Positions 1 through 37,765 of a DNA stretch of 39,769 nucleotides are shown in pieces; the first letter of the stretch is position 1, and every line of letters starts with the position of its first letter. Location: positions 1-39,769 of the forward strand of contig CAZGKP010000002.1 in NCBI GenBank assembly GCA_964526215.1, written 5' to 3'. Position numbers and translations under genes: made by a program. The notes beneath the pieces were generated by a model. It did not search any database. It worked only from the letters and a program-made list of their open reading frames with translations, and had not been told where the DNA came from. Source of the DNA: an uncultured Candidatus Sumerlaeota bacterium. GTDB lineage: Bacteria; Sumerlaeota; Sumerlaeia; MWCT01.

Positions 1-1077
1 CGGGGCGGGGAAAAGGTGCTGGAGATATTTTGCGACCTCTTCGGCGATGCACCGATTTATACACTCTTTTACGAGCCGAAGTGCGTTTCGGAAAAAATCC
101 GCAGACATAAGATTATACCCTCCATCCTGCAAAAGTTTCCTCTAACGCGCAGGTTTTATCGCCATTATCTGCCGCTGTTCCCATGGGCGGTCAGGCGCTT
201 TGACTTATCTGGCTACGGACTTGTGATTTCAACGAGCCATTGTGCGGCAAAGGGCGTGCACATCCCTAAAGGGGCGACACACGTAAGCTACTGTCATACA
301 CCGATGCGCTATATCTGGGACAAGTTTGATATCTATTTCGGGCAGAAATCGCAGATTTCACCGGTGCGCATTGCTGCGGGATTGTTGAGACACAGATTGA
401 GGCGCTGGGACGTTGCGAGTGCGCACAGCGTGGATTTTTTCATTGCAAATTCATTATACATCGCCCAGAAGATAAATAAATATTATGGACGGGAAAGCAC
501 CGTAATCCATCCACCGGTGGATACGGGATTTTTTTGCCCCGGCTCGATTAACAAAGAGCGGGACTCCGGGCTTGTAGACTATTACCTTATAGTCTCCGCC
601 CTTGTTCCGTATAAGCGCATAGATGTAGCGGTGGACGCATTTCGTGGGCGCAGCGAGAACCTTGTTATCGCAGGGAGTGGTCCTGAGGAAAGACGCCTCT
701 GCAAGCGAGCACCGGCGAATGTGAAATTTCTGGGCTGGCAGAGTGATGTTGACTTGCGGAACCTTTATCGCGGGTGTCGGGCGCTGATATTCACAGCGGA
801 GGAGGACTTCGGGATTGTCCCGCTGGAGGCGACTGCCTGCGGTCGCCCGGTGATTGCTTATGCCGCAGGTGGTGCACTCGAAACGGTGGTGGAGGGCAAA
901 ACGGGGGTCTTTTTCCACCAGCAAACCCCCGAATCCCTCTCAATGGCACTGGACAATTTCCGCCCCGATGGATTTGACGCGGCGGAATTACACCGGCACG
1001 CAGAGAGATTTTCCCCGGAGGTCTGCCTCGAGCAACTGAAGGCATTTCTCAAAGAAAAGGTCGGCGTGATATGCTGA
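1..1077 (+). CDS. Glycosyltransferase family 4 (GT-B fold), 5' end cut by window edge
   Basis: Frame 1 is open from nt 1 (RGGEKVLEIF...), so the GTG at 16 is unlikely to be the true start. The C-terminal half has the GT4 donor-binding core (LVIAGSGPEE, FTAEEDFGIVPLEATACGRPVIAYAAGGALETV). The stop overlaps the next start (ATGCTGA). Confidence 0.85.
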   Translation, partial: RGGEKVLEIFCDLFGDAPIYTLFYEPKCVSEKIRRHKIIPSILQKFPLTRRFYRHYLPLFPWAVRRFDLSGYGLVISTSHCAAKGVHIPKGATHVSYCHTPMRYIWDKFDIYFGQKSQISPVRIAAGLLRHRLRRWDVASAHSVDFFIANSLYIAQKINKYYGRESTVIHPPVDTGFFCPGSINKERDSGLVDYYLIVSALVPYKRIDVAVDAFRGRSENLVIAGSGPEERRLCKRAPANVKFLGWQSDVDLRNLYRGCRALIFTAEEDFGIVPLEATACGRPVIAYAAGGALETVVEGKTGVFFHQQTPESLSMALDNFRPDGFDAAELHRHAERFSPEVCLEQLKAFLKEKVGVIC

Positions 1078-2489
1078 AGAAACGCACCGGGTTATGGTTT
1101 ATGGTGCTTGTGGTTTGTGTGGATATTGCAGGCAGTGCGCTCGGTCTTGCCACAACCTACTGGTTGAGATTCGTTGTGGAGATTATGCCCGTAACCAAAG
1201 GCTACGCACCGTATGAGTATTTACGCATATTCCCGTTTGTGGTTCTTGTCTGGATAATCTCTCTGAACTTTGTCCACCTGTATATGCCGCGCAAGCGCGT
1301 CTTCGGTTTCAACGTAATCTGGCGCATTGTGAAGGGTTCATTTCTTGCCATCTTTATCATCGTGGGTATGAATTTTCTTTTGCGCGAGGCAGAGTACTCA
1401 CGCCCGGTGGTCGTAATGGCACCATTTATAGTGAGTGTGTACCTGTGCATCTTCAGGTTCATCCTGGAGAAGATACTGGTTCGGCTCGGTCTGCAAAAGG
1501 GCGTGGGGATGACGCCGGTTTTCATAGTGGGGACCGGAACGGTGGCACGGACGCTCGCCCGGCGCATACGTGAACATCCCGAGTATGGCTACCGTATGGA
1601 TGGTTTTCTCACCGAGAACCCCCAGGATGTGGGGCAAGAGATTGCCGAGGGGCGAATGCCTGAGAGTTGCCGCTCGGCGACATTTCAGGTTGTGGGAGTG
1701 GTGAAAGACGTAACACGCATCGCAGCGCAAAGGGGCGTCAAAGAGGTAATCCTCGCCCGCCCCGACCTCAAGACGAATCATCTGCTTGACTTAATGCTCG
1801 AATGCGAAAAGGAACTCATCACTGTTCACATTGTGCCGGACCTACTTGAAATTATCACAAGCGACATAAGCGTGAACGAAGTCGGCGGCGTGCCGCTTTT
1901 TGGTCTAAAGGAGACTCCCCTTCGCGGACTCAATTTGTTGATAAAGAGACTATTAGACCTCATCTTTGCCGGAATCACTCTCTTGATATCAAGCCCCTTT
2001 ATGCTGGTCATCGCCATCCTGATTAAGCTCGATTCGAAGGGACCCGTAATATACAGGCAGGAGCGAATGGGCGCTGACGGGCATCTATTCACACTGTATA
2101 AATTCCGCTCAATGGTGAAGGATGCCGAGAGACACGGACCGGTCTGGGCGACGGAGAATGACCCGCGCCGCACTCGCATCGGGGCTTTCTTGCGCTCGTG
2201 GAACCTCGATGAATTGCCGCAACTGGTGAACGTTGTGAAGGGAGATATGAGCATCGTGGGACCCAGACCCGAGCGCCCCATATTTGTCGAGAAGTTCAAA
2301 AACGGCGTGCCGCGTTATATGGCACGCCACCGAGTAAAGTCGGGCATCACAGGCTGGGCACAGGTCAACGGACTGCGCGGCGATAGCTCCATTGAAGAAC
2401 GTGTCAAATATGACCTCTTTTACATAGAAAACTGGTCGTTCCTTTTTGATATAAAAATACTCATACTTACACTTTTCGCCATTCATTGA
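1071..2489 (+). CDS. Polyprenyl-phosphate sugar-1-phosphate transferase (bacterial sugar transferase, WbaP/EpsB-like initiating enzyme)
   Basis: 472 aa. N-terminal TM helices, a central Rossmann-like linker (VFIVGTGTVARTLARRI), and the C-terminal sugar-transferase core (KGPVIYRQERMG, LYKFRSM, DELPQLVNVVKGDMSIVGPRPERP, SGITGWAQVNG). Confidence 0.9.
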   Translation: MLKKRTGLWFMVLVVCVDIAGSALGLATTYWLRFVVEIMPVTKGYAPYEYLRIFPFVVLVWIISLNFVHLYMPRKRVFGFNVIWRIVKGSFLAIFIIVGMNFLLREAEYSRPVVVMAPFIVSVYLCIFRFILEKILVRLGLQKGVGMTPVFIVGTGTVARTLARRIREHPEYGYRMDGFLTENPQDVGQEIAEGRMPESCRSATFQVVGVVKDVTRIAAQRGVKEVILARPDLKTNHLLDLMLECEKELITVHIVPDLLEIITSDISVNEVGGVPLFGLKETPLRGLNLLIKRLLDLIFAGITLLISSPFMLVIAILIKLDSKGPVIYRQERMGADGHLFTLYKFRSMVKDAERHGPVWATENDPRRTRIGAFLRSWNLDELPQLVNVVKGDMSIVGPRPERPIFVEKFKNGVPRYMARHRVKSGITGWAQVNGLRGDSSIEERVKYDLFYIENWSFLFDIKILILTLFAIH

Positions 2490-2494
2490 CGCGG

Positions 2495-2939
2495 ATTGTC
2501 TGTTGTCCGTTGTTCAGATTGAGAGCGGTGGACGAGGATGCCTAAAAGTGATTTTGAGAAGTTACGGGTATATCAGTTGGCTGAGAAACTGGCGGATGAG
2601 ATTTGGAATGTCTTCTCAGCTTGGGAAGGCTTTGCCAGGGACGCAATCGGGAAACAAATTGCACGCTCCGCGGATAGTATTGGAGCGAATATTGCAGAAG
2701 GCATCGGACGTGGCAGCTTTCAGGACAACCGCCGGTTTGTCCGAATGGCGAGAAGCTCATTGAAAGAAACACAACAGTTTCTTCGTAGAGCATACAAGCG
2801 AAATCTCCTTAATGACAATCAAGTTAATAAAATCAAACCGCTTATTGATGAGCTCGCACCAAGACTAAACGCATATTCGAATTCAATTGGTCAAGTTCCC
2901 CGAAAAACAAAGGACAAATAACAACGGACAACTGACAAT
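2495..2939 (+). mobile_element. IVS-like cassette: 20-nt terminal inverted repeats enclosing a single four-helix-bundle ORF
   Basis: 2495-2514 ATTGTCTGTTGTCCGTTGTT and 2920-2939 AACAACGGACAACTGACAAT are complementary at 19/20 positions. Exactly one ORF lies between them. Partial copies of the left end occur at 8313, 13011 and 20175. Confidence 0.55.
2538..2921 (+). CDS. Four-helix-bundle protein (23S rRNA intervening-sequence protein family)
   Basis: 127 aa with a family-typical N-terminus (DFEKLRVYQLAEKLADEIW), a central ARSADSIGANIAEG motif and SSLKETQQFL. Purine-rich GGTGGACGAGG lies directly upstream of the ATG. Confidence 0.85.
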   Translation: MPKSDFEKLRVYQLAEKLADEIWNVFSAWEGFARDAIGKQIARSADSIGANIAEGIGRGSFQDNRRFVRMARSSLKETQQFLRRAYKRNLLNDNQVNKIKPLIDELAPRLNAYSNSIGQVPRKTKDK

Positions 2940-4359
2940 GAACAAATTTCCTTTACCCGATTGGGCGCGGAGGGCGGTTCTTTATCAAATTTTCCCCGAC
3001 CGCTTTGCCCGCGCAGAAGATTGCTCGCCATCCTCCCATATCACCGACCCCTGGGATGACGAACTCACCCACGATTCTTACACCGGCGGTAACCTCGACG
3101 GAATCACACAACACCTCGACTATGTCGAAGACCTCGGCGTGAACGTCTTGTGGCTTAATCCTATCTTCTGTGCGCCCTCGAGCCATAAATATGACACGGC
3201 GGACTATACTCGCGTGGATATGCAATTCGGCGGCAACCGTGCACTCCGCAGGCTCGTCCGAGCTGCACATCGCCGCGGGATTCGCATCTTGCTGGATGCC
3301 GTGTGCGGACACTGTTCGCCCGAATTCTTCGCATTCAGAAACCTCCTTCGGCGCCAGCAAAAATCTCCCTTCCGCGCCTGGTTTCATATCAGACGCTTGC
3401 CTGTTGTCCGGGGTACAAAATCTGGCTTCAATCAGACCTACGCCTGCTGGCACGGACATCCCGCACTCCCGCAATTTGACACTGAAAATCCCGATGTGCA
3501 GGAGTATCTCATAGGTGCCTTTGAGAGATGGCTTACGGCTTATGACATTGACGGTTTTCGCCTCGATGCCGTAGAGACCGTCCCGATGCCGTTCTGGGAG
3601 AGGTTCTATAAGCGGATGAAGAAGGCAAAATCAGATGTGCTCCTCGTAGGCGAACTCTGGTCGCAGGACTATCGCTTCATTGAACCACTCCGTATGGATA
3701 CGCTTACGAATTTTCAGCTCCACTGGCTGCTTGTTGACAAGCTCGGCGCGGGGAAGATTAAGTCCGAGGCATTCGCAATAAGAGTTGACACATTGCGCGC
3801 CCATCTCCCGAAGACACATCCCGATGCGATGTTCAATTTCCTCAGCAACCACGACGTTATGCGGGTCGCATCGCGCCCGGGTATGAACCGCCGCCGCCTC
3901 AAGATGCTTTATCTATTTCTTTTGACATATCCGGGATTGCCGGGAATCTATTACGGCGACGAGGTAGGGATGAAGGGGGGAAATCCACCCGCAAGCAGGG
4001 GCGGAATGGTCTGGGATGAGAGCCTCTGGGACAAAGAGATGCACGGTTACATAAAAGACCTTATCCACATAAGGCGAAGCGAAGATGCGCTAACGGTCGG
4101 GAGATTTGAATGGGTCTATGCGAACAATTCCACGCAAGTGGCGATATTCACGCGAGGCAAGGGGGATGAACGCATTGCAATCGTCCTTTATTTCGGCAAG
4201 AGGAAGAGGTCAAGCGATATACACAAGCCCCTTCGGCAAGAGGGGTGGATGGTGAGAGAAGTCCTTTTCCCGCACCATTATGTCCAGACAAGCCCAATCA
4301 CCATACCTGCCGAGAGCGGTGTAGTATTAAGGGTAACGAAGCAAGGGAATGCGAACTAA
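2938..4359 (+). CDS. GH13 alpha-amylase-family glycoside hydrolase, probably cytoplasmic
   Basis: GH13 conserved regions are present: ILLDAVCGH (I), GFRLDAV (II), VGELW (III), FLSNHD (IV). No signal peptide. Start placed at the internal ATG 2938 (MNKFPLPDW...), because the track start at 2887 lies inside the upstream four-helix ORF and repeat arm. Confidence 0.9.
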   Translation: MNKFPLPDWARRAVLYQIFPDRFARAEDCSPSSHITDPWDDELTHDSYTGGNLDGITQHLDYVEDLGVNVLWLNPIFCAPSSHKYDTADYTRVDMQFGGNRALRRLVRAAHRRGIRILLDAVCGHCSPEFFAFRNLLRRQQKSPFRAWFHIRRLPVVRGTKSGFNQTYACWHGHPALPQFDTENPDVQEYLIGAFERWLTAYDIDGFRLDAVETVPMPFWERFYKRMKKAKSDVLLVGELWSQDYRFIEPLRMDTLTNFQLHWLLVDKLGAGKIKSEAFAIRVDTLRAHLPKTHPDAMFNFLSNHDVMRVASRPGMNRRRLKMLYLFLLTYPGLPGIYYGDEVGMKGGNPPASRGGMVWDESLWDKEMHGYIKDLIHIRRSEDALTVGRFEWVYANNSTQVAIFTRGKGDERIAIVLYFGKRKRSSDIHKPLRQEGWMVREVLFPHHYVQTSPITIPAESGVVLRVTKQGNAN

Positions 4360-4643: not shown

Positions 4644-5324
4644 ATGAAACTTTTTAGCCATTATCGAAAAAGGGCTTTCACCCTAATCGAGCTACTTATC
4701 GTAGTAGCAATTATCGCCATATTAGCGGCGATTGCCGTTCCGAACTTTCTGGAGGCACAGACGCGTTCAAAGGTTTCGCGCTGCGCCGCAGATATGCGTT
4801 CCATACGCACCGCTATCGAATCATATTACGTTGACGTCAACTGGTATCCCGAAACGGACACAGGCACAGCAGACTGGACAAAAGCCGGTGTTGGGCTTAT
4901 CCGGTGCACCACTCCGGTGGCATATATCACAACTATCCCCAAATCGCCTTTTAGAGAAGAAAAAATCGGGCATCCGTCTGGTTCTCCGAAAAACTGTAAT
5001 AAGTATAACATCTATCTTTACGTAAGAGAGTTAAAAGTTGGGGCAGGTGGTAAGAACATCGTCACCGAAAATGACCCTAATTATGTGTTGGACAGAAAGG
5101 TTTACCTCTTCGCTAATGCCCCACTTGACCCGATGGATATAAGACCTTATGAGGGTTACTGGGAACTTAAGAGTGTTGGGCCGGATAACTCGGATGATAG
5201 AGACAGTCAACAGGGTCACGTTCCTGAGGAAGCAAGGATTTATGACCCGACGAATGGCACAGTAAGCGCAGGTGATATCGTTGTTTACGGAGACACTCAA
5301 GGGTTTGCACACCAGAAGGAGTAA
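4644..5324 (+). CDS. Pseudopilin (prepilin-type N-terminal cleavage/methylation domain, GspG/PulG-like)
   Basis: N-terminus KRAFTLIELLIVVAIIAILAAIAVPNFLEAQTRSKVSR. GGAGGTG SD 8 nt upstream. C-terminal YDPTNGTVSAGDI motif is shared with the 29021 paralogue. Confidence 0.85.
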   Translation: MKLFSHYRKRAFTLIELLIVVAIIAILAAIAVPNFLEAQTRSKVSRCAADMRSIRTAIESYYVDVNWYPETDTGTADWTKAGVGLIRCTTPVAYITTIPKSPFREEKIGHPSGSPKNCNKYNIYLYVRELKVGAGGKNIVTENDPNYVLDRKVYLFANAPLDPMDIRPYEGYWELKSVGPDNSDDRDSQQGHVPEEARIYDPTNGTVSAGDIVVYGDTQGFAHQKE

Positions 5325-8312: not shown

Positions 8313-8396
8313 CGTTGTCCGTTGTCTGTTGTCAGTTGGAGTATACGGGAATTGCTGATTGATATTTTTATCCTTTTGGGAGGGACGAGAAGCCTC
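8313..8396 (+). repeat. R1 copy A: ORF-less ghost of the four-helix cassette left end
   Basis: CGTTGTCCGTTGTCTGTTGTCAGTTGGAG..TGATTGATATTTTTATCCTTTTGGGAGGGACGAGAAGCCTCATAA. About 85% identical by eye to copy B. Its 3' end (GGAGGGACGAGAAGCCT) parallels the cassette start region (GGTGGACGAGGATGCCT). Confidence 0.6.
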
Positions 8397-8416
8397 ATAA
8401 CGACTATCCCGAAAAT

Positions 8417-9406
8417 TTAGTCGGTTTGCCGGTCTTCCGCGAAGACCCGTCCGCCCTGGTGGCTTGGCTGTATCCAGCCCGCAAAACCGAGTTCCTCGTG
8501 CAGGCGGGCTAAAGGGCGATACTCATCCGCCTTTACCCGGCGAGAAATTTCCGGCATCTCCGGCGCCCTGTATGCCGGAAAGTATTGACTCATAAGGGCA
8601 AGATGTATCTTCGGTGAAACCTCTTTTGCTAACCAGTGAAGTGATTCTTGTGTGCCGGCGATTCCGCCCGGCAGAACCAAATGCCTTACAATCAGTCCCC
8701 GCTGCGCAACGCCTCGCTCATCGCATCGCAACACGCCAACTTGCCTGAACATCTCTTTGAGCGCCGCCCGGCTGTGTTTTACGTAATTCTCCGCACCCGA
8801 ATACTTCAGCGCCATATCATCATCGGAGTATTTAATATCCGGCAGATAAATATCGAATATGCCGTCCAGCAATCGCAAAATCTCGACGCGCTCATAGCCG
8901 CTCGTATTATAAACGAGAGGGAGGCTGAATCCGCGCGAAACGGCAAACTCAAGTGCCTGTAAAATCTGCGGCACAAAATGCGTGGGCGTAACGAAATTTA
9001 TGTTCTCACAACCGCGTCTCTGTAAATATATGAACATATCGGTAAGCTGGCTGACGCTGTATTCGTTCCCGACGCCGAGCTGGCTGATTGGATAATTCTG
9101 GCAGAAAACACAACGAAGCGTGCAATTTGTGAAGAAGATTGTCCCGGAGCCGCCTTCGCCCACAAGCGGCGGCTCTTCGCCGAAGTGTGCATTGTGGGAA
9201 GAGACAATAGGATTTGCACCGGAGCGACAGCGCCCCTTTTCCCCGGCAATACGATTCACTCTACACCGATGTGGGCAGAGCTCGCAATGCCCCAGAATAG
9301 ATGCCGCCGCCACGACTCTCCGGTGGAGTTCCCCCGAACGATACAGCGACATATATGCCGGGGCTGAAATGATATTACACTCTGTTTTTTCACTCTTCAT
9401 CTTCAC
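8417..9406 (-). CDS. Radical SAM protein, PflX-like (pyruvate formate-lyase activase-related, COG1313 type)
   Basis: CX3CX2C motif (CTLRCVFCQN) plus an N-terminal Cys cluster (CELCPHRCRVNRIAGEKGRCR). The true start is either the GTG at 9406 or the ATG at 9400. Both lie inside the left arm of the R2 repeat. Confidence 0.85.
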   Translation of the reverse strand: MKMKSEKTECNIISAPAYMSLYRSGELHRRVVAAASILGHCELCPHRCRVNRIAGEKGRCRSGANPIVSSHNAHFGEEPPLVGEGGSGTIFFTNCTLRCVFCQNYPISQLGVGNEYSVSQLTDMFIYLQRRGCENINFVTPTHFVPQILQALEFAVSRGFSLPLVYNTSGYERVEILRLLDGIFDIYLPDIKYSDDDMALKYSGAENYVKHSRAALKEMFRQVGVLRCDERGVAQRGLIVRHLVLPGGIAGTQESLHWLAKEVSPKIHLALMSQYFPAYRAPEMPEISRRVKADEYRPLARLHEELGFAGWIQPSHQGGRVFAEDRQTD

Positions 9407-9640
9407 TCTTCATCTCTGTCTTCATCTCCATTTCCGTATCTTGCTATTTCTTGCGCAATGCGCCTTCCCGACCGATTCAATAGTGCACTCGTTCTGCCGA
9501 CGATTTCGCTCAAAAGATCTTTGCCTCCTCCGAAAAGAACATAGTTGTTGCTCTCGTAAAGATGAAGATGAAGAAGGAGATGAAGTGGATGCAAGCATCC
9601 CAATCAGATGAAGATTTTATGAGGGAATATACGCGAGATT
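9391..9640. repeat. R2 element (complete): imperfect TCTTCATCT / AGATGAAGA inverted arms around a ~130-nt core
   Basis: Left arm 9391-9429 (CACTCTTCATCTTCACTCTTCATCTCTGTCTTCATCTCC). Right arm 9559-9590 (AAGATGAAGATGAAGAAGGAGATGAAGTGGATG). Flank AGATTTTATGAGGGAATATACGCGAGATTCCC is shared with the 37.7-kb copy. Confidence 0.6.
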
Positions 9641-12891: not shown

Positions 12892-13010
12892 TCTTCAGGT
12901 GGGAAAAGGGCAATAAAAAAGCACACCGTCCGCCATCTCATCACTTCCATATTATCTAAATCGCCGAGTGACATAAACCGTTTTTCTGTCACGGGAATAA
13001 CCGCAGTCAA

Positions 13011-13090
13011 TTGTCCGTTGTCCGTTGTCAGTTGCAGTATCGGGGAATTCCTGATTAACATTTTTCATCCTTTTGGGAGGTCGAAGATCG
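13011..13090 (+). repeat. R1 copy B
   Basis: TTGTCCGTTGTCCGTTGTCAGTTGCAGTATCGGGGAATTCCTGATTAACATTTTTCATCCTTTTGGGAGGTCGAAGATCG. Lies 120 nt downstream of tRNA-Gly and directly upstream of the HAD gene. Confidence 0.6.
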
Positions 13091-18687: not shown

Positions 18688-20139
18688 TTAACGCCCCGAA
18701 TTTCGCAGCAATCCCCACTTGTGTAACTTCCGGTATAAGTCGCTGGCAATAAGGTTTTGGGCAAAACCGTTGAAGTGTGTGTAATCTTGCTTGCTTATGT
18801 AGAGATTCTCCTTTGCATAATGTTTAAGGTGCGGCAGGGGGTCATATACATAAAACCCCTCCGCGGAGAGATATTCCTTCAGTCGTTTTGCGGATTTGTC
18901 GGATACCCCCGGCGGGTCCGTAATCTGATAGGAGACTGGGAAAATAATCACCACACAGGGAATTCGCCTGGGCGAACAGGCTTTCTTCACCTTGCCGAAT
19001 TGCTTTCTCAACCATTTCCATTCGGGTGTCTGCGGGTTGGAAAGTATAGATAGAGCATAATCGAAAGGTCTCAAGTTTTTGTATTTATCCTTATTAAGGG
19101 TATATTCTATTCGCCGGTAAATCCAGCTTATAAAAGAGGAATAGCGGAGGGCATAGGTCAGAAAGACAGATTTAAGTTTAAGGGAGTCGGGGCGAATCTT
19201 CCAGCGATTATGGGCATACGCGGTCTGGGGATTCGGAAATATTCCACTCGGGAGATTGCCGAGTTTTTCAAAGGTGTGCGTCTCGAAGTCGAGAGAGGGT
19301 TCATTAACGTCGTTGTAGCAAAAGCCCAGGAGGATGAGGTCGGGCTTCAATTGAAGCCCCCGTGCCTCTAAAAATGCGCATTCGTTGTAAGTGTTCCATC
19401 CACCCACACCGGCATTAATTACTTCATAAACCACGTCCGATGAAGGCGGGCGGTTTTTGTTCAGAAGGGCTTCCAGCCGATCTGTAAAACGTTCTCTGGC
19501 GGGGATACAGAAACCGAAAACTACCGAATCGCCAATGGCAAGTATGCGGAAAAGACCTCTTTTCTTCTCCGGCTTGAATTTGTGGTAACGAAAACCCTGC
19601 GAGTTGATTTTGTAAAGGGTGGGGCGGCGATTCTCCCTGATTACGACACGCGAATCGGGCTTGAGCTCATAAACAATGTCCGGGTTTTTTGAGAGCTGAT
19701 GTATCTTGTGGAATTTTGTTTGAAAAACCGGTGTGAAGCCGAGTAAACTGAACAATATCTCAAGTATAACCAGCGTAAAAAGCAGAGTTAGAATCAGCGT
19801 AAAAAGGACTAAAATGCAATTGCGGCAGCGGATAACAATTTTATCGGTGTATGAATATTTTGCAGCGCGCCGCATAATGAGGAAATGGCTGACAAGTAGC
19901 ACAAAACCTCCAACCAGAAAAAAAGATGATAAAACGTCCAGAAGGCGTTGTTGATAGGCAGAGAGGGCATCGGGGAGATAGACGAAATACGAATAGAGTC
20001 TGCGGTCAGTGAGAATCGCCGCCACAATCAGGCAAAAACCCACAATCTGCACGAAGCGTAAGAAATTTAAAGAGACTGCGCGGGGGATTTTGCGGGCATT
20101 TTCGGTGCTCCTGGCGGAACGTAAAAAAAATAGAGACAC
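18688..20139 (-). CDS. Membrane-anchored SGNH/GDSL-family hydrolase
   Basis: N-terminal TM helices (IVGFCLIVAAIL, FFLVGGFVLLVSHFLI, ILVLFTLILTLLFTLVILEILF). SGNH blocks: LAIGDSVVFGF (I), GVGGWNT (II/III), DYTHFN (V). GTG start with a GAGGA SD 6 nt upstream. Confidence 0.75.
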   Translation of the reverse strand: MSLFFLRSARSTENARKIPRAVSLNFLRFVQIVGFCLIVAAILTDRRLYSYFVYLPDALSAYQQRLLDVLSSFFLVGGFVLLVSHFLIMRRAAKYSYTDKIVIRCRNCILVLFTLILTLLFTLVILEILFSLLGFTPVFQTKFHKIHQLSKNPDIVYELKPDSRVVIRENRRPTLYKINSQGFRYHKFKPEKKRGLFRILAIGDSVVFGFCIPARERFTDRLEALLNKNRPPSSDVVYEVINAGVGGWNTYNECAFLEARGLQLKPDLILLGFCYNDVNEPSLDFETHTFEKLGNLPSGIFPNPQTAYAHNRWKIRPDSLKLKSVFLTYALRYSSFISWIYRRIEYTLNKDKYKNLRPFDYALSILSNPQTPEWKWLRKQFGKVKKACSPRRIPCVVIIFPVSYQITDPPGVSDKSAKRLKEYLSAEGFYVYDPLPHLKHYAKENLYISKQDYTHFNGFAQNLIASDLYRKLHKWGLLRNSGR

Positions 20140-20174
20140 TAATCATCCTCGCAGAAAAAAAAGTGGTGGAACAG

Positions 20175-20240
20175 TTGTCTGTTGTCCGTTTGCCGTTTTG
20201 TCCGCCCGAGGCGGAGCGGATTCAACATTTTTATCCTTAC
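20175..20240 (+). repeat. R1 copy C (degenerate)
   Basis: TTGTCTGTTGTCCGTTTGCCGTTTTGTCC...GGATTCAACATTTTTATCCTTAC. It shares the 5' arm and the AACATTTTT(C)ATCCTT box with A and B. The middle is replaced by a CCGCC-CGA-GGCGG hairpin. Confidence 0.45.
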
Positions 20241-29020: not shown

Positions 29021-29593
29021 ATGAAAATACAGAAGACAAATCCCGAACAGCACCGTCGTGGATTCACCTTGATTGAACTGCTCGTGGTTGTGGCAATCAT
29101 CGCCATCCTGGCGGGCATTGGCCTCCCCAATTTCCTGGAGGCGCAAACCCGCAGCAAAGTCAGCCGGGCAAAAACAGACCTGCGCACAATCGCCGGGGCT
29201 CTTGAGGCTTACCATTCCGACCACAACCGCTATCCCTCCAGCACACTGGTTCCTCTGTTCCGGCGCCTTATGCCTCTTACCACACCCGTGTCCTATATCT
29301 CCTCCGTACCCCGTGATGTTTTCCGGACGGTGGATAAGAACGCGGGGCGCTGGCGGTCACGGGGAAACTATGCCTACGGGGCAAGACCCATCGACCTGGA
29401 AAGTCGCTATGCCCTGACCAGCGACGGTCCTGACCTTAGACCCAACCATAGTAAAATTGAGTATTATCCCGGTTACTCGGACGACATCTGGGAAAACCCG
29501 GAAAGCGGTTTTAATTATATTCGTTATGACCCCACCAATGGTACTGTGAGCGCCGGGGACATCTGGCGCGTGAGCGACGCTCAGATGGAATGA
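29021..29593 (+). CDS. Pseudopilin (prepilin-type N-terminal cleavage/methylation domain), paralogue of 4644-5324
   Basis: HRRGFTLIELLVVVAIIAILAGIGLPNFLEAQTRSKVSR. The C-terminal RYDPTNGTVSAGDI motif is shared with the other copy. Confidence 0.85.
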   Translation: MKIQKTNPEQHRRGFTLIELLVVVAIIAILAGIGLPNFLEAQTRSKVSRAKTDLRTIAGALEAYHSDHNRYPSSTLVPLFRRLMPLTTPVSYISSVPRDVFRTVDKNAGRWRSRGNYAYGARPIDLESRYALTSDGPDLRPNHSKIEYYPGYSDDIWENPESGFNYIRYDPTNGTVSAGDIWRVSDAQME

Positions 29594-32636: not shown

Positions 32637-32730
32637 ATCACCCAGAGCACGTATTCATTTTTTTGATACATTTCAAATACCCTGCTCCCGGTATGAGGTC
32701 AATCTAAATAACTCGTCATACGTTGTGTGC

Positions 32731-32790
32731 ATCTTCCCTTCACTCTTCATCTTCATCTCCATCTATGTATCTTGCTGTTTCCCCCGCTGC
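32731..32790 (+). repeat. R2 solo left end
   Basis: ATCTTCCCTTCACTCTTCATCTTCATCTCCATCTATGTATCTTGCTGTTTCCCCCGC parallels 9391-9455 and 37597-37650 (shared ..TCTTCATCTCCAT..GTATCTTGCT(A/G)TTTC..). No clear right arm nearby. Confidence 0.5.
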
Positions 32791-36821: not shown

Positions 36822-37535
36822 TTAGTGGTAGGGGTATTCGAGGGCGATGCGGGCGGCATCGTTCTCGGCTTCCTTCTTGCGGGAGCCATAACCTTTCCCG
36901 AAGGGCTTTCCCTGAATGGTAACCTCGATGCAGAAACTCTTCTTATGGTCAGGTCCGCTCTGGCTTATGAGTCGGTATTCGGGGACACACTGGAAGTTTT
37001 TCTGTGCATATTCCTGCAGGCGCGATTTGTAGTCGGCGAATATGTCGGACTGAAGGAGTTCCTCGGCGGGTTTGATGAGTTTCTCTTTGACAAAGTGGGA
37101 AACATCCTCGAGGGGGGCAGAGAGATAAAACGCCCCGATGAGGGACTCGAGGGCGCAACCCAGAAGGGTGGAACGCCGCCTGCCACCGCTTATTTCTTCT
37201 CCTTTGCCTAAAAGCAATAGATTGCCGATTCCGAGCCGCGTCGCCTGTCGCCCAAGCATCGAACGGCTCACAATCCGTGCCTTTCGCTTTGAAAGCCTGC
37301 CTTCATCTGCATCTGGGTATTTATCATAAAGGTAACGGGAGACCAGGAATCCAAGGACAGCATCTCCCAGAAATTCGAGGCGCTCATTATCTCCGGGTAG
37401 ACCCTTCTCGAATGCATACGAACTGTGCGTGAGGGCGAGGTTCACCCGTTTTAGGTCTGCACTCTGAAGGTTAAGGGATTTCAGGAATGCCTTCAGTGCT
37501 TTTTTTCGGGGAGAGTCTATATAGTCATCCGTCAT
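36822..37535 (-). CDS. rnc: Ribonuclease III
   Basis: Signature NERLEFLGDAVLG. C-terminal dsRBD (DYKSRLQEYAQK..PEYRLISQSGPDHKKSF..GSRKKEAENDAARIAL). Confidence 0.92.
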   Translation of the reverse strand: MTDDYIDSPRKKALKAFLKSLNLQSADLKRVNLALTHSSYAFEKGLPGDNERLEFLGDAVLGFLVSRYLYDKYPDADEGRLSKRKARIVSRSMLGRQATRLGIGNLLLLGKGEEISGGRRRSTLLGCALESLIGAFYLSAPLEDVSHFVKEKLIKPAEELLQSDIFADYKSRLQEYAQKNFQCVPEYRLISQSGPDHKKSFCIEVTIQGKPFGKGYGSRKKEAENDAARIALEYPYH

Positions 37536-37596: not shown

Positions 37597-37765
37597 CCTT
37601 ATACTCTTCATCTCCATCTTCATCTCCGCATCTTGCTATTTCCTCCGCCACACGCGTTTCTAACCGCCTCAATAAGGGCATCCCGCCAGGGGCGCGCCCG
37701 TAATAGCTAAGATGAAGACGAAGATGAAGATTTCATAAGGGAACACACGCGTGAGTCCCATTTTT
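37597..37765. repeat. R2 element (complete) in the fabF-rnc spacer
   Basis: Left arm CCTTATACTCTTCATCTCCATCTTCATCTCC (37597-37627). Right arm AAGATGAAGACGAAGATGAAGATTTCATAAGG (37709-37740). The core contains an R3-like CCCGCCAGGGGCGCGCCCG (37682-37700). Flank GGGAACACACGCGTGAGTCCC parallels 9624-9644. Confidence 0.6.

Follow-up and report, generated by a model that had tools for sequence, protein, structure and literature searches.

The 39,769-nt stretch analysed here (the window), contig CAZGKP010000002.1 of an uncultured Candidatus Sumerlaeota bacterium, carries at positions 2495-2939 a short unit in which two complementary arms, each built of seven-nucleotide repeats, enclose an open reading frame (ORF) for a predicted four-helix-bundle protein. 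We regard this unit with high confidence as real and conserved, one copy of a widespread, self-contained cassette of arms plus ORF. By analogy, it is best filed as the equivalent, in messenger RNA (mRNA), of the intervening sequences (IVS) with ORFs in 23S rRNA. The evidence leans, if not strongly, towards an overall reading that joins a conserved cassette with horizontally spreading insertion and with cleavage of its RNA by RNase III.

The two arms comprise 20 nt each, lie 405 nt apart and pair at 19 of 20 positions (95%), the sole mismatch being U.U, with a duplex energy of -27.0 kcal/mol. Both are composed of three tandem heptamers of the type GTTGTCN. Upon folding of the region 2480-2960, the arms were found paired in the minimum-energy as well as in the centroid structure (z = -2.96). 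Allowing for up to three mismatches, the arm pattern occurs three times in the window compared to 0.00 occurrences expected from 100 dinucleotide-preserving shuffles. The inverted-repeat score of the cassette is 17, and shuffling of the flanks yielded a maximum of 13. When only the A/C-rich tract at 2906-2947 was shuffled, the maximum was 11, and the observed score of 17 was attained in 0 of 2000 shuffles.

A previous reading of the letters alone (the original prediction) had placed the arms at these very coordinates with the same 19/20 complementarity. It had located the left arm 5 nt behind the stop codon of a sugar-transferase gene and described a single enclosed 127-residue ORF of the four-helix-bundle family, all of which proved exact. 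It had further stated that the right arm ends in the ATG of a GH13 alpha-amylase gene that has no other obvious Shine-Dalgarno sequence, and this also held: the start at 2938 is backed by the N-terminus of an orthologue (MNKFPLPDW vs. MMPFTPLPDW), and the only Shine-Dalgarno candidate is a GGA at -12 to -10. The right arm shares bases with the stop codon of the enclosed ORF (2919-2921) and covers the AT of the GH13 start codon; the right-hand repeat tract, delimited by Tandem Repeats Finder at 2906-2947, reaches back into the final codons of the ORF. Taken alone, as a leader of GH13, the right arm is unstructured (-0.6 kcal/mol). The left arm can also fold into a hairpin with the leader and the ORF start (2486-2540; -16.6 kcal/mol, z = -1.56, not significant), a hint of two alternative structures that exclude each other. 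Inside the unit at 2495-2939, promoter and terminator signals did not exceed chance, no transposase was found within or beside it, and there is no target-site duplication at this copy, the flanks being CGCGG and GAACA. An Rfam search of the window at gathering thresholds returned tRNA-Gly only, and a scan of 24 window ORFs revealed no reverse-transcriptase domain.

The enclosed ORF matches PF05635 with an E value of 2.8e-28 (98.7 bits, cut-off 33.8) and TIGR02436 with an E value of 1.7e-25 (89.4 bits, cut-off 24). It also matches the Xanthomonas structure PDB 2GSC (E = 7.6e-7), and from this sequence match a four-helix-bundle fold and a pentameric assembly are putatively assigned to the window protein. 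A (G)xxRxxxSxxxNxxE motif has been reported for homologues of Xcc0516 (PMC3936711); in the window ORF, the RxxxSxxxNxxE motif reads RSADSIGANIAE and aligns to RRAAVSIPSNIAE of 2GSC. More than 6,400 relatives of the protein are detectable, the nearest of which are about 75% identical and originate from other phyla. In the subfamily of the window protein, the median ratio of nonsynonymous to synonymous substitution rates (dN/dS) is 0.14, as calculated on one multiple alignment from pairs with a synonymous divergence of 0.05-0.55. This value is a mark of purifying selection and indicates that the cassette protein is functional in this subfamily. Searches against PADLOC and PHROGs gave no useful match for the four-helix-bundle protein, and as late as 2024 the PF05635 domain was called 'functionally uncharacterized' (PMC11270868).

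We scanned species-representative genomes for related cassettes and obtained 497 relatives, from which 80 loci were kept; 77 of these were usable for arm scoring. The kept loci come from Acidobacteriota, Nostocales, Oscillatoriales, Planctomycetota, Verrucomicrobiota, Chloroflexota, Thermodesulfobacteriota and Rhodothermales. The arm score is that of the best ungapped inverted repeat across the ORF, and equally spaced windows in the same loci served as controls. Inverted heptamer arrays scoring above the 99th percentile of the controls flank the homologous ORF at 70 of the 77 loci, in at least seven phyla; the median arm score is 18, while the controls have a median of 7 and reach 10 at the 99th percentile. 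The stems of the related cassettes have a median length of 31 nt and a median duplex energy of -37 kcal/mol. Long co-directional reading frames lie on both sides of 58 of 76 cassettes, and the distances are short: the left arm follows the upstream stop codon at a median of 3 nt, and the next in-frame ATG lies a median of 7 nt behind the right arm. The right arm mostly starts inside the last codons of the ORF. In the first four contigs with relatives, the gene is located between co-directional operon genes, with heptamers upstream and their reverse complement downstream. Junctions among these contigs are lipoamide dehydrogenase/E1-alpha, transaldolase/6-phosphogluconate dehydrogenase, and an ABC transporter and the gene following it. 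The polarity of the cassettes is conserved, the left arm being G+T-rich (>60%) in 69 of 76 cases.

The sequence of the repeat unit varies by lineage and from cassette to cassette (GTAGTCC, GTTGTCA, GTGGTCA, ATTTGTC, ATTGGTC, CTTAGTC, CTTTGTA and others), while the period of seven and the inverted arrangement remain constant. When arms were swapped between loci, the median score dropped from 18 to 9. One Pyrinomonadaceae genome harbours two cassettes with different units; with their own arms these score 16 and 15, and crossed arms score 6 and 6. Arms are present irrespective of whether the neighbouring genes are co-directional, convergent or divergent, and the array lengths at orthologous sites of related species differ by multiples of 7. 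The arms are thus a property of the cassette and not of the genome or of its surroundings. Genes for a transposase, an integrase or a reverse transcriptase were not found next to any cassette examined. Three loci of the survey show unusual arrangements. At L067 (2390-2890), arrays of ACAACNA units have the same orientation on both sides and form a direct repeat around the ORF; at L005 (about 2860-2960), a further hairpin of the same heptamers, itself lacking an ORF, immediately follows the ORF; and L079 (2501-3548) carries two cassettes in tandem.

A similar architecture was found in distant subfamilies. Using the partial 2GSC sequence as a query, we located homologues of XCC0516, the protein of this structure, in Xanthomonas, Stenotrophomonas and Dyella (L098-L103), all of them between accB and accC, which usually adjoin each other. 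The arms of these Xanthomonadales cassettes are inverted GGGAATC arrays of 27-30 nt with a complementarity of 83-91%, and the right arm stops 0-2 nt short of the accC ATG. Between Xanthomonas and Stenotrophomonas the unit has changed on both sides (GGGAGT/ACTCCC vs. GGGAAT/ATTCCC). Four plasmid-borne relatives with 28-50% identity gave mixed results: the copy on a Nostoc punctiforme plasmid has GTCAGGA arrays on both sides, that of Picosynechococcus sp. PCC 7003 (L107, 1465-1894) separates cas10/cmr2 from cmr3 and has inverted arrays of the AGGAGAT type, the Calothrix copy has a 3' array only, and the Pseudanabaena copy has no arrays. PF05635 genes in cas operons, one of them adjoining cmr3, have been read as having a CRISPR-linked function (PMC3936711; PMC10910872). 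The published 'CRISPR-associated 23S_rRNA_IVP' calls may represent cassette insertions rather than functional partners, an association that may arise because cassettes insert where they are harmless. A chance complementarity of two low-complexity tracts around an ordinary gene is refuted by the tract-only shuffles together with the recurrence of the arms at 70 of 77 loci and in distant subfamilies, and we consider it next to impossible; the inverted-arm observation at 2495-2939 is confirmed as lying far beyond chance.

The gene order around the cassette is conserved in another Candidatus Sumerlaeota genome whose GH13 orthologue is 56% identical. There, two glycosyltransferase genes are followed by Bac_transf and GH13, and the 46 nt between the Bac_transf stop codon and the GH13 ATG contain neither ORF nor heptamers, thus constituting an empty site. 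Two further GH13 orthologues were uninformative on the junction, P0125 due to a rearranged context and P0123 due to the short contig. The best homologue of the cassette protein, in other phyla, is 75% identical, and that of the neighbouring GH13 reaches 62% anywhere, which suggests horizontal spread of the cassette. We therefore consider it probable that the cassette is a horizontally spreading insertion.

ORF-bearing IVS were described in the early 1990s; those of Coxiella burnetii (helix 45), Leptospira and Brucella encode S23p, and the IVS sites in 23S rRNA are helix 25 or 45. The IVS of C. burnetii has a length of 428 nt and contains an S23p ORF; its terminal inverted repeats pair to a stem of 28 bp, and the stem region is made up of tandem GACAGAT heptamers in two to three copies depending on the strain; it is cut by RNase III in vitro, and the ends mapped by rapid amplification of cDNA ends fall within the stem (PMC4990558). 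IVS occur sporadically, and mobility has been suspected for a long time (PMC4990558). The window cassette shares with the Coxiella IVS the PF05635 ORF in the loop, the stem of terminal inverted repeats (20 nt here) and the tandem heptamers. It differs in being located at the stop/start junction of protein-coding genes, with a glycosyltransferase, the sugar transferase and GH13 as neighbours and outside any rRNA gene. The polarity is also opposite, GAC-type units lying 5' of the ORF in Coxiella and 3' of it in the window, and the protein of the window subfamily is under purifying selection. The likeness to an IVS, which the original prediction had drawn, is well founded in this precedent. The original prediction had also let its case depend on pairing of the arms in a fold of 2480-2960, on the behaviour of the low-complexity tract under shuffling, on flanking repeats of their own at other four-helix ORFs and on an empty site in a relative. 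The outcomes of the fold, the shuffles, the survey with its distant subfamily and the Sumerlaeota junction all speak in its favour. Its suggestion of mobility stands as far as presence/absence and cross-phylum distribution are concerned; a mechanism is not visible, with neither a transposase nor a target-site duplication found. On the whole its interpretation is supported in part, the two effects that it proposed for the stem, occlusion of GH13 initiation or an RNase III cut, being putative.

The arms of the cassettes resemble over-represented heptanucleotide repeats of cyanobacteria, Xanthomonas and sulfur bacteria, on which 'no detailed literature' was available as of 2015 (PMC4692102). TAACTGA arrays of Beggiatoaceae, cyanobacteria and Bacteroidetes, which end right in front of start codons, were proposed to be the site of an unknown post-transcriptional or translational regulator (PMC4679880), and GGGAATC repeats of Xanthomonas and related Nostoc repeats were studied as G-quadruplex formers (Rehm et al. 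2015, PMC4692102). In these papers the arrays figure as simple repeats in their own right (regulator sites, G-quadruplexes, polymerase slippage); neither a PF05635 gene nor a pairing of inverted arrays on the two sides of an ORF is mentioned (PMC4679880, PMC4692102). Like the cyanobacterial short tandemly repeated repetitive (STRR), TAACTGA and GGGAATC repeats, the cassette arms have a period of 7, are intergenic, change in 7-nt copy steps and end near a start codon. The right-arm unit of the window (CAACTGA/CAACGGA) is one base away from TAACTGA, and GGGAATC is the very unit of the cassette arms in Xanthomonas. Cassette arms in Nostocales include TTGGTCA-type units, probably the 'STRR2' of Mazel et al. 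1990. Solo arrays outnumber cassettes. The full-text literature searched contained nothing linking PF05635 genes outside rRNA to inverted heptamer arrays, although an earlier remark in Mazel 1990, Vioque 1997 or Ralph & McClelland 1993 is possible.

Two other kinds of elements invite comparison. Avd proteins have a homologous four-helix-bundle fold, which forms pentamers in Avd; homologues of Avd bind nucleic acid in diversity-generating retroelements (DGRs), and PF05635 is the commonest family beside DGR reverse transcriptases (PMC10053308). However, neither a reverse transcriptase nor a template/variable repeat pair was found near the sampled cassettes, and Avd genes have not been described with flanking inverted heptamer arrays. 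Miniature inverted-repeat transposable elements (MITEs), insertion sequence (IS)-like elements and hairpins of repetitive extragenic palindromes (REP) or bacterial interspersed mosaic elements (BIME) are likewise short, multi-copy, intergenic, bounded by inverted repeats and polymorphic for presence or absence. Unlike MITE or IS-like elements, the cassettes have arms of 7-nt arrays that vary between copies and a conserved gene cargo under selection, with no transposase and no target-site duplication.

As the best-supported mode of action of the cassette we tentatively propose, with a little less than even confidence and by analogy to rRNA, cleavage of an RNA stem by RNase III. The cassette would be co-transcribed with its neighbours, and in the polycistronic RNA the arms would anneal to a double-stranded helix of at least 20 bp. 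RNase III, for which the window contains an rnc gene, would cut this helix as it does in the rRNA IVS. The four-helix-bundle message would thereby be released as a separate RNA and the messages of the neighbours separated from each other, and the GH13-side message would retain a short A/C-rich leader, unstructured and ending at the AUG. As cleavage would separate the messages, an insertion would be nearly harmless to the neighbouring genes and the cassette would be able to persist. Since the arms are tandem repeats, gains and losses of whole units would keep them pairable. Cleavage could thus explain why the arms need to pair, why slippage by 7 nt is tolerated, why the polarity is conserved, and why the cassettes are placed between stop and start codons, where the damage would be least.

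Several findings weigh against the combined reading of insertion and cleavage. Clear paired arms are lacking at 7 of the 77 close relatives and in one to two of the four distant plasmid copies. Some cassettes, for example in a Nostoc group, are antisense to both neighbours, and would therefore need a promoter of their own and might leave the left arm untranscribed. The stem in the window has only 20 bp including a U.U mismatch, which is close to the minimum for RNase III, and cleavage of this and the other non-rRNA copies is proposed solely by analogy. Among the arm mismatches of the surveyed cassettes, 64 are of the G.U type and 66 of the A.C type; with no excess of G.U, nothing points to selection on the sense RNA over a strand-symmetric process in DNA. 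The ORF of the Coxiella IVS is seemingly unexpressed and decaying (PMC4990558), unlike that of the window subfamily. As to insertion, the relative with the empty site is distant, as judged by the 56% identity of GH13, and too diverged to define the insertion boundaries, so that a deletion there is possible.

The even balance of mismatches is what would be expected if the arms act in DNA, as ends for movement or copying of the cassette, either as a hairpin or cruciform in single-stranded DNA together with a trans-acting recombinase or by quasi-palindrome template switching, with pairing of the RNA being incidental. Such a role, which is compatible with the RNA model, would also fit the cassette-specific arms even within one genome, their presence at any orientation of the neighbours, the variation of arrays in 7-nt steps at the same site in related species, the presence/absence polymorphism and the high similarity of the protein across phyla. 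We nevertheless rate it as rather unlikely: no transposase, integrase or reverse transcriptase accompanies any cassette examined, the window copy lacks a target-site duplication, and the strict polarity and the placement near stop and start codons fit constraints on expression more easily. The constancy of gene plus arrays across phyla, with the unit changing, is what a co-evolving protein and site would produce, and the arrays might accordingly be binding sites of the encoded Avd-like pentameric protein, which would control its own and downstream translation and also act on solo arrays. The purifying selection on the protein and the solo arrays of the same unit in the window agree with this, as do the proposal of TAACTGA arrays as regulator sites (PMC4679880) and the binding of nucleic acid by Avd homologues in DGRs (PMC10053308). 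However, evidence for binding within the family is confined to DGR members, a protein with 58-75% identity would have to recognise units as unlike as GTAGTCC, ATTTGTC and CTTAGTA, and PADLOC and PHROGs provide no functional hint; we consider this explanation unlikely.

We similarly assign a low probability to a stem that remains uncut. The helix would then leave no more than about 10 nt between stop and start codon, so that a terminating ribosome could melt its base and reinitiate (translational coupling), or it would occlude the GH13 start. The median distances of 3 nt between stop and left arm and 7 nt between right arm and ATG suit such an arrangement, as do the overlap of the right arm with the GH13 ATG in the window and the absence of a clear Shine-Dalgarno sequence. 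Yet RNase III, an enzyme encoded in the window, has perfect helices of 20-60 bp as canonical substrates, and the sole experimental precedent, the Coxiella IVS, shows cleavage; both coupling and cleavage fit the present data. A role of the arms in DNA, for mobility or for maintaining their likeness to each other, a role as protein-binding sites and a role as an uncleaved stem are not mutually exclusive.

The positions of the cassette parts, of the adjacent genes and of further features of the window are listed in Table 1.

Table 1. Features of the cassette at 2495-2939 and related features of the window.
Feature	Position	Strand	Remarks
Upstream Bac_transf sugar-transferase gene	1071-2489	+	stop TGA 2487-2489
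Left arm	2495-2514	+	ATTGTCTGTTGTCCGTTGTT; three tandem heptamers ATTGTCT GTTGTCC GTTGTT; sense transcript G+U-rich
Leader, left arm to ORF start	2515-2537	+	alternative local pairing partner of left arm
Four-helix-bundle ORF, 127 aa	2538-2921	+	PF05635/TIGR02436 ('23S rRNA intervening sequence protein', S23p, Avd-like)
Right arm	2920-2939	+	AACAACGGACAACTGACAAT; AACAACG GACAACT GACAAT; reverse complement of left arm; A+C-rich; alone unstructured
Downstream GH13 alpha-amylase gene	2938-4359	+	ATG 2938-2940, at base of predicted stem
Solo GTTGTCN array	8314-8339	+	GTTGTCC GTTGTCT GTTGTCA, then 45-nt tail common to the copy at 13010; relation to cassette uncertain
Solo GTTGTCN array	13010-13035	+	same tail; between tRNA-Gly and HAD hydrolase gene
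Short solo GTTGTCN array	20174-20192	+	right-arm type on minus strand, about 35 nt upstream of start of minus-strand gene 18688-20139
rnc (RNase III: Ribonuclease_3 and dsrm domains)	36822-37535	-	downstream of fabF; putative link to cassette

Matches to the GTTGTCN core are enriched in the window (16 vs. 2.5 expected), and three of the features in Table 1 are arrays of this unit that lie apart from the cassette. Two of them are part of an element of about 70 nt (8314-8385 and 13010-13082), in which the GTTGTCN array is followed by AGTTGnAGTATnnGGGAATTnCTGATTnAnATTTTT(C)ATCCTTTTGGGAGG. No significant structure was detected in this element on either strand. A scan of metagenomes with the shared tail GGGAATTNCTGATTNANATTTTT resulted in 8 hits, 0 of them with heptamers, and these are therefore regarded as chance matches. 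According to the original prediction, the window contained ORF-less and decayed relatives of the cassette, and this claim found no support. Alignments of the solo-array tails with the cassette leader and the 5' part of the ORF scored 12-16, with shuffled means of 13-15, and the tails had no resemblance to the leaders of 76 other cassettes (median z of 0-0.35). An apparent remnant of N-terminal codons seen by eye at 8340-8416 did not pass the same shuffled local-alignment test. The solo arrays may be independent heptamer arrays rather than decayed cassettes.

The other ORF-less hairpins with inverted arrays in the window are hexamer-based. They form a second family of ORF-less elements, bounded by inverted hexamer arrays, (CTTCAT)n ... 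(ATGAAG)n on the minus strand, at 9385-9612 (-), 37600-37735 (-) and possibly 32730-32781. Their common motif GAAATAGCAAGATnCGGA has 3 matches in the window compared to 0.17 expected, and the copy at 9380-9625 folds into a long hairpin (z = -3.13). These elements are located between co-directional genes, from cobO to a radical SAM gene and from fabF to rnc. The window also encodes two prepilin-type (N_methyl) proteins (4644-5324 and 29021-29593).

On a wider view, PF05635 genes with paired heptamer arrays might constitute an unrecognised class of mobile elements that colonises stop/start junctions of operons and rRNA helices across bacteria. The Avd-like protein would recognise, maintain or propagate the arrays, possibly via an RNA intermediate and a reverse transcriptase acting in trans, and the solo heptamers of cyanobacteria, Xanthomonas and Beggiatoaceae would be footprints or regulatory targets. 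We offer this as a speculation that we consider unlikely. The window copy is a member of a broad class that is absent from the searchable literature. PF05635 genes sit inside conserved operons (accBC, pdh, pentose-phosphate, cmr) and have been listed as CRISPR-associated through guilt by association, which calls for caution in annotation. In practice, heptamer arrays disrupt assembly from short reads and subject the expression of an operon to an additional step of processing or occlusion. If the cassette model is true, rRNA IVS, heptanucleotide repeats and scattered PF05635 genes would be aspects of one element, and the function of the protein would be testable in tractable hosts such as Xanthomonas, at accB-accC, and Nostoc.

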